DNA of 64,000 nt from Rhizomicrobium sp. (GCA_037200985.1 JBBCGJ010000001.1:718756-782755); one strand, 5' to 3'. Positions 5,941-9,277 are shown, numbered from the stretch's first letter. Notes: generated by a model from the sequence alone, not told the origin. Translations and numbers: made by a program.

Positions 5941-7449
5941 TCACGAAAGCGGCTTGCGGCACCAGAATTCGTACATTTGCGAAAACAGGAACGGATCGTC
6001 CCGTTCCAGTCGGGCCCAGGCGGCGATGTCCCGGTAAAGCGCGCCGATCGGTGCGCCGGTGCGGTGCTGGGCCGCGCGTCGGCGCGGCGGCAGACCGTAT
6101 CCCAGGAAGACCAGGCCCAGCGTCTCGATCGCACGCATGATGCGCGGCACGTCGAAGGCGATTTCATGCCGGTGCAGGAGCAAATCGAACACGCTGGCCA
6201 GCGTGTAGAAGTCGGGCGATCCCGCGACCAGGGCCGGTGCCTTCTCGACCAGGCGCCTCCGCACCGCGCGCAGGAGATCTGCGTCGACAGGCTGCGCCGC
6301 CAGATCGGCGATGAGGGTCTGTGCCGCCCGTATGCGCAGCCGCGCCACCGCGCTGTAGACCATCACATGCATGACGCCGCCGGGCTTGAGCACGCGCACG
6401 AGCGCTTCCCATCCCGCCTCGGGATCGGGCAGGTGATGGAGCACGCCGCTGCAGGTGATGGCGTCGAACCGGGTTTCCAGCGACGCGACGTCGTGAAGAT
6501 CGAGCGCGAGAAACGTGATACTGCGCAATCCCGCCGCGGCGCAACGCTCTGCCCCATAGCGCAGGCTGGCCTCGCTTATGTCGATCGCCGTGATGTGGGC
6601 GTCCGGACATTGACGCGCCCAGATGGCTGCTTCGCGCCCGGTGCCGCAGCCGGCGACCAGGATTTCCGCGCGCAGGGGTGGCGTGCCGCGCGGGCCGCCG
6701 GGATCGAGCTTCTCGATCAGACGCGGCAGCGTCGTGGTCTTGGAGACCATGACGCGGGACCACGCCGGATAAGGAAAGGACTCGTATTGCCCCGCGACGG
6801 CGCGGGTCGTCGGGTCGGCTTGGGCCGGCCGCACGACATCGTAGGGCGGCGGCGGCCGATAGGCGCGCGCGACGTCCGTGTCGCCTTCCGTGCCGAGGCG
6901 TTCGTCTTCTTCGGCATCGAAAAGCCATGCCCCGCCGTTTCGCACGGTCTGCGCTGCCAGCGCCGCGACCGAACGCGGAAACGTAGGCCAGCGCCCCGAC
7001 AACAGCAGCCAGCGGCGAAGCGCGGTCAGGGAAATCTCGACATCCAGATTCGCGACATGCGTCTCGCGAAGCAACCGCTGCGCCAGCAGGTTGGTCTCCA
7101 GCCACCGCCCGACATCGTCCGGCGCGGCCGACGCCTGCAAGAGCGGCGTCTCGCGCGAAAGGAGGACCCATCCCGCCGGGCCGATGAACCACGGATCGAC
7201 ATCCGCGTCGTCCAGCAGGGCATGCAAGGACGACGCCCTATCCGGCCCGATCAGATCCGGGCTGTCCAGAAGAAGGCGTGCGATGAGAGCCTTTGTCTGC
7301 CGATCGTCCGGCGCGGTGTCGAGGATGCTCCATGCCGCGGCGAGGGCTTCGCCGGCCCGCCCCGCGGCCTCATGGCCCAGGGCGGTGGAGCGCAGCGTCT
7401 CCCGCTCGTTTTCGAAAGAGGGGAGGGTCGCGCCGGTTCCGTCCGTCAT
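5941..7449 (-). CDS. Class I SAM-dependent methyltransferase with a ~270-aa N-terminal domain of unknown function
   Basis: ATG at 7449 is 4 nt downstream of the radical SAM stop. Motif I ILVAGCGTGREA, then LDLHD and VLKPGGVM, preceded by QYESFPYPAW. I do not recognise the N-terminal half. Confidence 0.8.
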   Translation of the reverse strand: MTDGTGATLPSFENERETLRSTALGHEAAGRAGEALAAAWSILDTAPDDRQTKALIARLLLDSPDLIGPDRASSLHALLDDADVDPWFIGPAGWVLLSRETPLLQASAAPDDVGRWLETNLLAQRLLRETHVANLDVEISLTALRRWLLLSGRWPTFPRSVAALAAQTVRNGGAWLFDAEEDERLGTEGDTDVARAYRPPPPYDVVRPAQADPTTRAVAGQYESFPYPAWSRVMVSKTTTLPRLIEKLDPGGPRGTPPLRAEILVAGCGTGREAAIWARQCPDAHITAIDISEASLRYGAERCAAAGLRSITFLALDLHDVASLETRFDAITCSGVLHHLPDPEAGWEALVRVLKPGGVMHVMVYSAVARLRIRAAQTLIADLAAQPVDADLLRAVRRRLVEKAPALVAGSPDFYTLASVFDLLLHRHEIAFDVPRIMRAIETLGLVFLGYGLPPRRRAAQHRTGAPIGALYRDIAAWARLERDDPFLFSQMYEFWCRKPLS

Positions 7450-7453
7450 GCCG

Positions 7454-9277
7454 TCAGGCCGCCGCGGCTTCTGCGACGGAGAGCGGCGCCTCGCGCCTTG
7501 CGGATGCATGGGACCGCGTCACGACCGTCAGCAGCAGCCCCTCATGCTCCACCACGAAATTCCGTTCGAGGAGAAACCGGACGTCGTCCGCCATCGCGGC
7601 GTCCACATCCGCGGCGGGCCGGGGCCGCTCGAAATATTTCAACACCTCGAACATCCTGTGGGACACGACGGTGAGGCCCGCGACGGCGATGCGCCGCGTA
7701 TCCGCGACCGCAAGGTCGCGGCCGCCATTGTCCATGAGGCGCAGCATCGGCGGGCGCTCCGTTCGCGACCATTGATGCTTCCACACGCCGATCGCCAATT
7801 GCAGCTTGGCGATCGTGTCCTTGTTCTCCAGCAGCGGCGTCGAATAGCTGCCGGAGAAGTGATAGGCGATGTCGGCGAGCGGCGCGTCCGCGGGATAAAG
7901 CCCCGCATAGCCCCTGGCGGGGGAAATGCTCTCGATGCCGAACTGCTCCGGCGTGTTGTGATAGGGGCTGAAACGGTCGACGATGATCCTGTTCAGGCCG
8001 GACGGCGGCTGCAGATGCTCGATCTTCGGCATCAGCCGCAGCACCGATTCATAGTCTTCGAGGCTCTCGCCCGGCAGTCCGTACAGATAATTCCAGGCCA
8101 CCCGTGTCCCCATCGACTTGCAGGACCGCAGCAGGGACAGGTTTTGCAGTCCCGACACGCCCTTGCGCATCAATTTCAGGACATTCGAGGACAGCGATTC
8201 GATGCCCGGCTGGATCGCGTCGATCCCGGCCTTGGCCATGATGAGGATCTGCTCGTCGCGCAGATTGGCCTTCACCTCGTAGAACAGCCTGGGGCGCTCG
8301 GGCCAGTTCGCGAGCGCCGGCAGCAGCGTCTTGAAATAGCCGAGCGGCATGATGTTGTCCGCCAGGAAGAACCGCTTGGCGTCCCAGCGCGCCGTCAGCG
8401 TCCGGATCTCGTTCAGCACGCGGCCGGCGGGCTTCTGGCGGAACTCCATGCCTTCGCCGTTGAGGCCGCAGAACGTGCAGTGGTGCTTCTGGCCCCACCA
8501 GCAGCCGCGCGAACTCTCCATCGTCAGGAACTCCGGAAGCTCCGGCGGCAGAAGTCCGTCGCGCTGGAACTGCCGCAGCGTCGAGAAATAGTCGGAAAAG
8601 TCGGGCGCGAAGACGCGGGTGAAGTCGTCGATCGGCTCGCATTTGACCAGCACGCCTTGCGGCCGGAGGCCGCCGCGGACCAGGCGCTCGCAGAATTCGG
8701 GGAATTCGAAATCGGCTTCGCCGATGAAGAAATGATCGATCCAGGGGAAGACGCCGGCAAGGCCGGTGCCCATGGGACCGGCGACGTTTGCGCCGCCCAT
8801 GACGACGACGATGTGCGGCGCCGCCTGCTTGACGAGGCGCGCCAACCCCGCTGCCGCGAGATTTTGCTGGAAGGTCGAAGAGATGCCGAGAATGCGCGGA
8901 TTGAGCGCGACGATGCGGTGCGCCAGTGCCTCCTGATAGGGGCCGATAGCGGGCGCCAGCTTGTCGTATAGCGGCCGAAGATCTTTCGGTAGCCCTGCCG
9001 GCTGCGTCAGCGGGCGCTCCGGCGTCCTGGGATAGGCATGCGGAAGAAAGAGATGTTCGCCCAGCTGGAGGCTCATCGGCGAGTCGCATACCGCCTTGTA
9101 ATCCCGGTAGCCGATCTGCGACGCAAGCATCATGCTGCCGTACAGAAGCTCGGTTCTCAGGCCGCGTGCGCGGCATGCCGCGACGAGCACCGAGGGACCG
9201 AGCGCGGGAAAATTGATCGCATCGAAGGGCGGCACGACGAAGCAGACGTCCGGCCGGTCTTCGTCTTTCAGGGGCAT
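7454..9277 (-). CDS. B12-binding-domain radical SAM protein, RiPP maturation C-methyltransferase-like (TIGR03975-type by recollection)
   Basis: ATG at 9277 is preceded by GGAGGG, giving 607 aa. N-terminal cobalamin-domain-like region VCFVVPPFDAINFPALGP. Cluster motif SSRGCWWGQKHHCTFCGLNG. The 85-aa upstream extension in the ORF track is rejected. Confidence 0.8.
   Translation of the reverse strand: MPLKDEDRPDVCFVVPPFDAINFPALGPSVLVAACRARGLRTELLYGSMMLASQIGYRDYKAVCDSPMSLQLGEHLFLPHAYPRTPERPLTQPAGLPKDLRPLYDKLAPAIGPYQEALAHRIVALNPRILGISSTFQQNLAAAGLARLVKQAAPHIVVVMGGANVAGPMGTGLAGVFPWIDHFFIGEADFEFPEFCERLVRGGLRPQGVLVKCEPIDDFTRVFAPDFSDYFSTLRQFQRDGLLPPELPEFLTMESSRGCWWGQKHHCTFCGLNGEGMEFRQKPAGRVLNEIRTLTARWDAKRFFLADNIMPLGYFKTLLPALANWPERPRLFYEVKANLRDEQILIMAKAGIDAIQPGIESLSSNVLKLMRKGVSGLQNLSLLRSCKSMGTRVAWNYLYGLPGESLEDYESVLRLMPKIEHLQPPSGLNRIIVDRFSPYHNTPEQFGIESISPARGYAGLYPADAPLADIAYHFSGSYSTPLLENKDTIAKLQLAIGVWKHQWSRTERPPMLRLMDNGGRDLAVADTRRIAVAGLTVVSHRMFEVLKYFERPRPAADVDAAMADDVRFLLERNFVVEHEGLLLTVVTRSHASARREAPLSVAEAAAA

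Follow-up and report, generated by a model that had tools for sequence, protein, structure and literature searches.

The polytheonamide enzymes PoyB and PoyC and the bottromycin C-beta-methylases are cobalamin-dependent (class B) radical S-adenosylmethionine (SAM) enzymes that carry an unconventional [4Fe-4S] cluster motif, Cx7Cx2C, and C-methylate unactivated side-chain carbons of a ribosomal peptide (PMC5682303). A third system, clavusporin from Streptomyces clavuligerus, relies on MpcB, a leader-dependent, iterative beta-C-methylase of Pro, Val and Ile that has the same motif and acts with a DUF5825 partner, MpcC, on a 13-mer with a short hydrophobic core (bioRxiv 10.1101/2024.01.23.576971). 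The current study examined a 64,000-nucleotide stretch of DNA from Rhizomicrobium sp. (GCA_037200985.1, JBBCGJ010000001.1:718756-782755; hereafter the window, with a G+C content of 66%), in which a radical SAM enzyme of this kind is encoded next to the genes for a lasso peptide. Positions 1869-9277 are read here, with a probability of roughly 0.6, as a single gene cluster that makes a tailored lasso peptide. An original prediction for positions 5941-9277 had recognized a radical SAM gene and a methyltransferase gene, tail-to-tail with the lasso cyclase gene, and had assigned the former to the maturation of peptides that are made on the ribosome and modified after translation (RiPPs).

On the lasso side, the closest described systems are the clusters of paeninodin (PadeK), ThcoK, SyanK (Sphingobium yanoikuyae) and BsfK, which share with the window cluster a split B1/B2, a cyclase and an HprK-related kinase, and whose precursors likewise end in Ser, there phosphorylated while the peptide is linear. 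No radical SAM enzyme is reported in these kinase-type clusters as described, whereas the window cluster has one, and the window core, of just 13 aa and with a 7-membered ring predicted, is shorter and nearly invariant. A class I methyltransferase is likewise present in lasso clusters that encode LasF (lassomycin) or StspM, which form a C-terminal O-methyl ester, or an aspartimide-forming enzyme of the protein isoaspartyl methyltransferase (PIMT) type; their chemistry is polar O-methylation, in contrast to the radical C-methylation proposed here. Xanthomonins, small lasso peptides from proteobacteria, have a Gly1-Glu7 ring of 7 residues; to our knowledge they have no tailoring genes, and their core sequences are unrelated to the window core.

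Compared to the enzymes of the other systems, the window radical SAM enzyme is most readily set beside MpcB (WP_003958123.1), which was found in a search of a plasmid collection and whose identity is confirmed by annotation. Both belong to TIGR03975, they are 36% identical over 520 aa (E 3e-93), and they have an identical motif block, RGCWWGxKHHCTFCGLNG. The alignment stops at about residue 500, where the C-terminal domains differ, and the MpcB peptide is linear and released by an S9 peptidase, while the window product is predicted to be a threaded lasso. The window enzyme has the Cx7Cx2C motif of PoyB/C and the bottromycin methylases; the likeness to PoyB/C is by description. Proteusins have long NHLP/Nif11-type leaders and epimerase partners, neither of which occurs in the window cluster, and the 49-aa window precursor gave no match to NCBIfam models. 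The proteusin/polytheonamide-type label given in the original prediction therefore stands for the enzyme family and falls for the rest, the precursor being that of a lasso peptide with no NHLP/Nif11 leader.

Association of the radical SAM enzyme with lasso genes

The features of the cluster are as follows (HMM, hidden Markov model; ORF, open reading frame; RRE, RiPP recognition element):

1869-2822, plus strand: HprK-related lasso-peptide kinase (weak HMM matches and motif spacing)
2816-3286, plus strand: lasso leader peptidase B2, start codon approximate (NF033537, PF13471)
3459-3608, plus strand: lasso precursor peptide, 49 aa, proposed radical SAM substrate (ORF, with homologues beside PqqD/cyclase genes)
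3656-3970, plus strand: lasso B1, PqqD-type leader-binding RRE (PF05402, NF033536)
3973-5913, plus strand: lasso cyclase C, asparagine-synthetase-like (NF033535, PF00733, GATase_7)
5941-7449, minus strand: class I SAM methyltransferase, 502 aa (Pfam Methyltransf_12/25/11)
7454-9277, minus strand: cobalamin-dependent (class B) radical SAM enzyme, 607 aa (TIGR03975)

The plus-strand genes thus run kinase, B2, precursor, B1, cyclase, and the minus-strand methyltransferase and radical SAM genes converge on them. The window contains a cyclase C, a B2, a PqqD-type B1 and a precursor with G1 and E7. B2 matched NF033537 (lasso_biosyn_B2) with 70.4 bits against a cutoff of 33 and PF13471 (Transglut_core3) with E 5.7e-15; B1 matched PF05402 (PqqD) with 62 bits and NF033536 (lasso_PqqD) with 65 bits; and the cyclase, which carries both PF00733 (Asn_synthase) and GATase_7, matched NF033535 with 300 bits (E 2.4e-89), under the 525-bit cutoff of that narrow model. 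The layout of the minus-strand genes is that given in the original prediction. A 607-aa protein with a cluster motif is encoded by ORF 7454-9277 and includes SSRGCWWGQKHHCTFCGLNG; its ATG at 9277 is preceded by a Shine-Dalgarno sequence, GGAGGG, and its TGA stop (7456-7454) is followed by 4 nt (cggc) and then by the methyltransferase ATG at 7449. The methyltransferase contains the predicted motif I, ILVAGCGTGREAA, and its stop at 5941 lies tail-to-tail with the cyclase stop ending at 5913, leaving the 27-nt gap that had been claimed.

A profile built from 22 homologues of the radical SAM enzyme yielded 80 loci from one-genome-per-species contigs, the neighbors of which were identified by tblastn with the window proteins, and further contexts were added by exact-protein look-ups. 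A lasso cyclase gene was found beside the enzyme in six of the nine loci at 47% identity or more (L001, L002, L003, L004, L006 and L009) and in none of the 71 loci at 42% or less. All 16 lasso-linked sequences fell into one clade of a neighbor-joining tree of 97 TIGR03975 sequences. With loci retrieved through the precursor left out of the count, 13 of the 17 clade loci had a cyclase gene within 10 kb, compared to 0 of 71 outside the clade (Fisher p = 2e-12). Of the two options offered in the original prediction, tailoring of the neighboring lasso peptide and service to an unrecognized RiPP, these counts favor the first, and the radical SAM enzyme is very probably part of the lasso pathway. 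The condition under which the original prediction would have been refuted, homologues without any synteny to lasso genes, did not hold.

The order of genes is shuffled between loci, and the lasso genes are the sole constant. In a Rhizomicrobium locus at 77% identity (L081), the radical SAM and methyltransferase genes converge on a cyclase gene followed outward by PqqD and a 49-aa ORF, and the flanks beyond the kinase-to-radical SAM segment differ between this locus and the window. The P0006 locus (67%) has two radical SAM genes, NTP_transf_5, a cyclase, a 45-aa ORF and B2, and L082 (58%) has NTP_transf_5, the radical SAM gene and a glycosyltransferase; a fragment of a cyclase lies 6 kb off. 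In Sphingomonas sp. QA11 (L084) the order is radical SAM gene, kinase, cyclase, inserted transposase, PqqD and 52-aa ORF. In the gammaproteobacterium Nevskia (L085) it is cobS/cobT, cyclase, JmjC, radical SAM gene, 52-aa ORF, PqqD, B2, acyltransferase, sulfotransferase and kinase. L093, a metagenome locus found through the precursor, has the radical SAM gene, precursor and B1 in one direction. In the window the precursor lies 2.3 kb from the radical SAM/methyltransferase operon, and in L085 and L093 it is directly downstream of the enzyme. In L091/L092 the methyltransferase gene (55% identical to that of the window) converges with an operon of cyclase, PqqD, precursor, B2 and kinase, and the radical SAM gene (54% identical) lies beyond the kinase. 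The co-occurrence of the gene pair with lasso genes, which the original prediction had put forward for examination, consequently holds for the radical SAM enzyme and not for the pair: the pair is limited to one sub-clade, and in L091 its two members stand on opposite sides of the lasso operon rather than adjacent. Only the radical SAM enzyme is conserved as a lasso-linked unit.

The closest relatives of the window are Rhizomicrobium metagenome-assembled genomes (MAGs). Lasso-linked members were found in Rhizomicrobium, Sphingomonas, Nevskia and Vicinamibacteria, with at least 13 verified loci across Alpha- and Gammaproteobacteria and Acidobacteriota, and more than 120 clusters (clustering at 90% identity) match the window enzyme with 48% identity or more. 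The plasmid collection contained distant family members alone (<40% identity) and no members of the lasso clade.

Several side observations concern these loci. The transposase in L084 is a DDE transposase (14975-16038) between cyclase and PqqD and possibly disrupts expression of the operon. The cobalamin-biosynthesis genes cobS and cobT of L085 (4129-6655) are directly upstream of the lasso cyclase, which fits a B12-dependent step. B2, located between kinase and precursor in the window (2816-3286), is missing at that position in the 86%-identical L001 (6437-6590), where just 153 bp separate the two genes, and neither B2 nor a kinase is nearby in L081 (15839-16103); the essential peptidase must be encoded elsewhere in these two genomes.

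The lasso precursor and its family

The 49-aa precursor (3459-3608) consists of a predicted leader, residues 1-36, MARSDEQREWAGVSPSARAVYEKPSFHRIGADEAET, followed by a predicted core, GIQFGPEILILLS, in which a G1-E7 ring would be followed by a 6-residue tail with a C-terminal Ser; the ILILL tail remarked on in the original prediction is part of this core. The leader carries the lasso-type [WY]xxP motif, in the window as YxxPxF at -16. A profile search of the protein database recovered 52 non-redundant precursors of this type, all of them unnamed or labeled 'hypothetical protein', with the shared core G-I-x-x-G-P-E-I-L-I-L-L-S. Among the 52, G1, I2, G5, P6, E7, L9, I10, L11 and S13 are invariant and I8 and L12 are conserved in at least 92%, which makes 11 of the 13 core positions invariant to 92% or more. 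Positions 3 and 4, within the predicted ring, are hypervariable, with 9 and 7 different residues, respectively. The combination of an invariant core with two variable ring positions suggests a conserved scaffold carrying a variable recognition patch.

The core is taken to start at Gly1 because G1 is invariant while position -1 varies (Thr in 35 precursors, Ala in 11, Ser in 4, Asn in 1 and Val in 1), and cleavage is accordingly predicted before this residue, which leads to the predicted 7-membered G1-E7 ring and six-residue tail. A core beginning at Thr, with a T1-E8 ring, was rejected, since -1 varies and G1-I2 is invariant. The [WY]xxP motif is at -16 in 47 of the 52 precursors, compared to the -17 reported for other lasso leaders, and Thr in type-I leaders is at -1 instead of the canonical -2.

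Homologues of the precursor lie beside PqqD/cyclase genes in 7 related loci, and tblastn with the small ORFs of lasso-linked loci distinguished two related precursor types. Type I, with the core G[IV][QN][FN]GPEILILLS, was found in the window, L001, L081, L084, L085, L091 and L093, and type II, with the core GIS[YF]xPxDG[IL]SNL[ST](P), in L002, L003, L004, L006 and L009 (twice). The two enzyme sub-clades of the tree match precursor types I and II, a sign that enzyme and substrate have diversified together. When metagenomes were scanned with the precursor profile, a narrow pattern, 2 loci were found. The type-II clusters (L002, L003, L004, L006 and L009; for example, L003 7900-19200) represent a second, heavily decorated lasso family, with a Stf0 sulfotransferase, a 2-oxoglutarate (2OG)-Fe(II) oxygenase, a membrane acyltransferase_3, NTP_transf_5 and a TPR/PrmA-like methyltransferase as extras. 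In addition, L003 has a second PqqD, and L009 (partly also L006) has a second radical SAM copy.

As stated in the original prediction, no precursor lies directly beside the radical SAM/methyltransferase operon; the nearest is that at 3459-3608. Within the 178-nt gap upstream of the radical SAM gene, the coding strand has no ORF as long as 20 aa, and the sole ORF reaching into it (9313-9678) is out of frame and crosses the end of an SDR gene. Beyond the radical SAM gene are this SDR gene, an aldehyde dehydrogenase gene and unrelated genes. Across loci, the lasso precursor is the only small ORF kept near the enzyme.

The methyltransferase

The 502-aa start of the methyltransferase agrees with the choice of gene callers for a database entry with 100% identity (P0121). 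Pfam Methyltransf_12/25/11 match residues 263-360, within a class I domain at about 260-370. The N-terminus, which the original prediction could not recognize, had no Pfam match over its first ~250 aa either, and in the AlphaFold2 (AF2) model (pLDDT 84) these residues are all-helical. The catalytic half gave Rv2067c and the Rickettsia protein-lysine methyltransferases PKMT1/2 as top Foldseek matches; the lasso core has no lysine. No match to PCMT (PF01135) was obtained at E <= 0.001, and the enzyme is therefore not of the PIMT type. The possibility that its N-terminal domain substitutes for MpcC (DUF5825) was rejected, as the two show no similarity. Orthology with the PrmA-like type-II enzymes, which have a TPR N-terminus, was also rejected; the similarity is generic to class I, and the window and type-II methyltransferases are therefore analogous recruits.

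Many full-length homologues (~490 aa) share 50% identity or more, and five contexts at 51-56% identity were inspected. In four of these, a pseudouridine synthase (RluB) gene is followed by RsmD and one to three copies of the methyltransferase, with UvrD next in intact loci, and in the fifth a Rhizomicrobium paralogue lies between SDR and an IclR regulator. In Sphingomonadales (L086 10001-14580; L087, L088 and L090), methyltransferases with the helical N-domain directly follow RsmD and a pseudouridine synthase, and one Allosphingosinicella MAG has three tandem copies. These hints suggest a ribosome-related housekeeping role for the ancestral family, and the family overall is not a RiPP family. 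It is accordingly worth considering a reading in which the lasso cluster includes the radical SAM enzyme but not the 502-aa methyltransferase, the latter being a housekeeping bystander concerned, for example, with ribosome or protein methylation. Such a role would fit the RluB-RsmD-methyltransferase-UvrD order of homologues at 50-56% identity in four genomes (one with three tandem copies), the fusion of RsmD and methyltransferase in P0163, the absence of the methyltransferase from the Sphingomonas, Nevskia and type-II clusters, and metatranscriptome coverage by just a 40-nt fragment. However, in the window, L001, L081 and L091 the methyltransferase and cyclase genes still meet tail-to-tail, at methyltransferase identities as low as 55% and even where the radical SAM gene has moved to the other side; the lasso-linked copies (the window, P0122, P0125, P0126 and P0129) form a clade of their own apart from the RsmD-linked copies; and a second, more distant paralogue exists elsewhere in Rhizomicrobium. 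A bystander is thus unlikely. The lasso operon is the sole thing common to the surroundings of both genes in the layouts of the window and L091. We conclude that a methyltransferase paralogue was recruited into the cluster within one lineage, and there is good reason to expect that it takes part in the pathway.

Chemistry of the radical SAM enzyme

The RiPP C-methyltransferase-like family named in the original prediction was borne out by profile, motif and fold. TIGR03975 (RiPP maturation radical SAM C-methyltransferase), a 'subfamily' and not an equivalog model, matched with 561.4 bits against a curated cutoff of 281.85 over profile positions 1-575 of 606, and five further members of the lasso clade scored 538-586 bits. 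The Cx7Cx2C motif, C259-x7-C267-x2-C270, lies in GCWWGQKHHCTFCG (residues 259-270) and is invariant across the 22 homologues. The AF2 model (pLDDT 86.7, pTM 0.85) has the fold of radical SAM enzymes that depend on B12; its top Foldseek matches (OxsB, TokK, TsrM, CysS and MgmA) are all cobalamin-dependent, and it aligned with OxsB, TokK, TsrM and CysS across 515-600 columns. A sequence search of the PDB gave marginal matches alone, with a best E of 7e-5. The HMM scan called for in the original prediction was thus positive for TIGR03975 and for Pfam Radical_SAM (52 bits) and fell short for the remaining model, Pfam B12-binding.

Judged by homology, the enzyme most likely C-methylates unactivated side-chain carbons of the linear precursor while the leader is still attached, a proposal that seems better than even. 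Several points weigh against it, or against the wider proposal of a tailored lasso peptide. The B12-binding score was 25.4 bits against a gathering score of 32.1. The lasso clade is no more than 42% identical to any other sampled TIGR03975 member, class B radical SAM enzymes include catalysts of reactions other than methylation, and we infer methylation, its site and its timing. MpcB needs its DUF5825 partner MpcC, and the window cluster is without a DUF5825 protein. The last ~100 aa of the window enzyme form a beta-beta-beta-alpha-alpha-beta-beta domain, which was considered as a PqqD-like RRE; hhalign against nine lasso B1 proteins gave 0.2% probability and Pfam gave no match, and its identity as an RRE would be a guess from the order of secondary structures alone. 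None of the five methyltransferase contexts described above is RiPP-related. Finally, L005 and L007, which are basal in the lasso clade, have no lasso genes within 10 kb (L008 is cut by a contig end), and L083 has two tandem lasso-clade radical SAM genes (10001-13626) and no lasso gene within 10 kb. Several of the type-I precursors are recorded on contigs equal in length to those of radical SAM matches, and two of them, P0277 and P0280, agree in this way with the 4.0-Mb contig of L083 (4,003,360 bp). The L083 genome therefore probably encodes the peptide elsewhere on that contig, a circumstantial link, and this arrangement suggests a split cluster.

It is also possible, though doubtful, that the enzyme acts on the lasso precursor by non-methyl chemistry, such as C-C, C-O or C-S cross-linking, epimerization or rearrangement, in which case the name of TIGR03975 would be misleading for this clade. 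The clade is separate from other TIGR03975 members, few of which are characterized, the model itself is of subfamily rank, and cobalamin radical SAM enzymes that are not methylases include OxsB (one of the top structural matches), ThnL (thioether formation) and AprD4. On the other hand, the TIGR03975 match reaches twice the cutoff and spans almost the whole length, MpcB, which is a proven methylase and 36% identical, has the very same cluster-motif block, and the core abounds in residues of the types methylated by PoyB/C and MpcB (Ile, Leu, Val and Pro). That the operon serves another RiPP or a non-peptide substrate and is a mere neighbor of the lasso genes is very improbable: its opposite strand and lack of a directly adjacent precursor, the clade members without nearby lasso genes (L005, L007 and L083) and a mostly non-RiPP methyltransferase family would agree with this, whereas the only conserved small ORF near the enzyme is the lasso precursor, lasso synteny survives several rearrangements across phyla and is absent in 71 non-clade loci, and enzyme sub-clades track lasso precursor types.

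The kinase and other features of the window

The kinase scored 33 bits, a weak match, with TIGR04355/TIGR04352, and it is 34% identical (E 6e-36) to an L085 gene carrying PF07475 (Hpr_kinase_C). It has the motif H-x14-GCSGAGKS-x15-DD, spaced exactly like the conserved motif of lasso kinases as reported for BsfK (PMC10368454). The lasso kinases known so far modify the C-terminal Ser while the precursor is linear, before cyclization (PMC8498205). With the H...GxxGxGKS...DD motif present and S13 invariant in 52 of 52 precursors, phosphorylation of the precursor's C-terminal Ser is the predicted role of the window kinase.

Positions 1600-9700 were scanned for promoters and terminators, with an uninformative outcome: promoter-like sites were absent, and the 9 terminator-like sites, compared to 5.4 expected, all lay outside the 27-nt convergent gap. 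Wood-decay metagenome runs contain DNA near-identical to the window. Low-depth contigs of a metatranscriptome from the same sample cover the precursor region (3267-3524), the cyclase (4954-5456), four pieces of the radical SAM gene between 7970 and 9138, and the methyltransferase fragment mentioned above; they give weak support to in-situ transcription of the precursor, cyclase and radical SAM regions, with DNA carry-over possible.

No ABC exporter (lasso D gene) and no isopeptidase was found in or beside the cluster at 1869-9277, and the nearest transporter is an MFS gene (13865-16210). Farther along the window is a chaperone-usher pilus cluster (29756-33825, minus strand) with an usher (PF00577), a PapD-like chaperone and a subunit of the Spore-coat-protein-U (SCPU) type; an ORF of 171 aa within it (29756-30271) may be a second subunit. 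Upstream of the pilus cluster (24966-29754) are a PAS histidine kinase/receiver and a GAF-PAS-GGDEF-EAL protein.

Proposed pathway

From the observed gene content and synteny, we infer the following steps. The 49-aa precursor would be made first, and its linear, leader-bearing form would be the substrate of the class B radical SAM enzyme, which would reductively cleave SAM to a 5'-deoxyadenosyl radical that abstracts H from an unactivated side-chain carbon of the core. Methylcobalamin would then give the methyl group, and a second SAM would re-methylate the cobalamin, once or iteratively. The best candidate sites are Ile2 and Pro6, because no other ring residues with side chains are shared by the two precursor types, and the invariant Ile/Leu tail would come next. 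In parallel, the HprK-like kinase would phosphorylate the C-terminal Ser. B1 would present the leader to B2 for cleavage, and C would close the Gly1-Glu7 isopeptide ring around the tail. The class I methyltransferase may add a further N- or O-methyl group, as a lineage-specific accessory that the radical SAM enzyme would not require; candidate positions are the C-terminal carboxylate, the phosphate and the Gln3 amide.

The radical C-methylation might conceivably be structural and not decorative, in that enlarged Ile/Leu/Pro side chains could act as steric plugs, although this suggestion is a speculative one. Such plugs and a phosphorylated C-terminal Ser would together hold in place a lasso thread that is among the smallest known, with a 7-membered ring and an all-aliphatic tail of only 6 residues. 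In a variant of this idea, the enzyme may form a C-C or carbon-heteroatom link between tail and ring.

Implications

A full-text search across about 8 million articles and preprints gave no description of a radical-SAM/B12 lasso cluster or its product, although an earlier bioinformatic mention is possible. Radical SAM tailoring is absent from lasso-modification reviews of 2021 and 2022 and from a 2026 field-wide perspective in the Journal of the American Chemical Society, in which the word 'radical' does not occur. About a dozen secondary lasso modifications are known according to a 2025 preprint, and none of those named is made by a radical SAM enzyme. The statement in the original prediction that no radical-SAM C-methylated lasso peptide has been characterized agrees with the reviews searched, and the cluster combines an enzyme family and a RiPP class, each of them known, in a way that is so far uncharacterized.

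If the reading proposed here is true, the product would be the first radical-SAM-tailored lasso peptide, and C-methylation of unactivated carbons would join the lasso toolbox. The precursor would in that case offer a compact substrate for class B radical SAM peptide methylases, few of which are tractable, and membership in the TIGR03975 clade together with the ...GPEILILLS motif would provide genome-mining rules for clusters that current annotation misses. If, in addition, the side chains act as steric plugs, the cluster would represent a new way to stabilize a mechanical bond and would bring a radical SAM step into lasso biosynthesis for the first time. Lasso clusters are linked with an entire clade of cobalamin radical SAM enzymes, and the lasso clusters of the kind seen in the window form a widespread, uncharacterized family with a 13-residue core that hardly varies.

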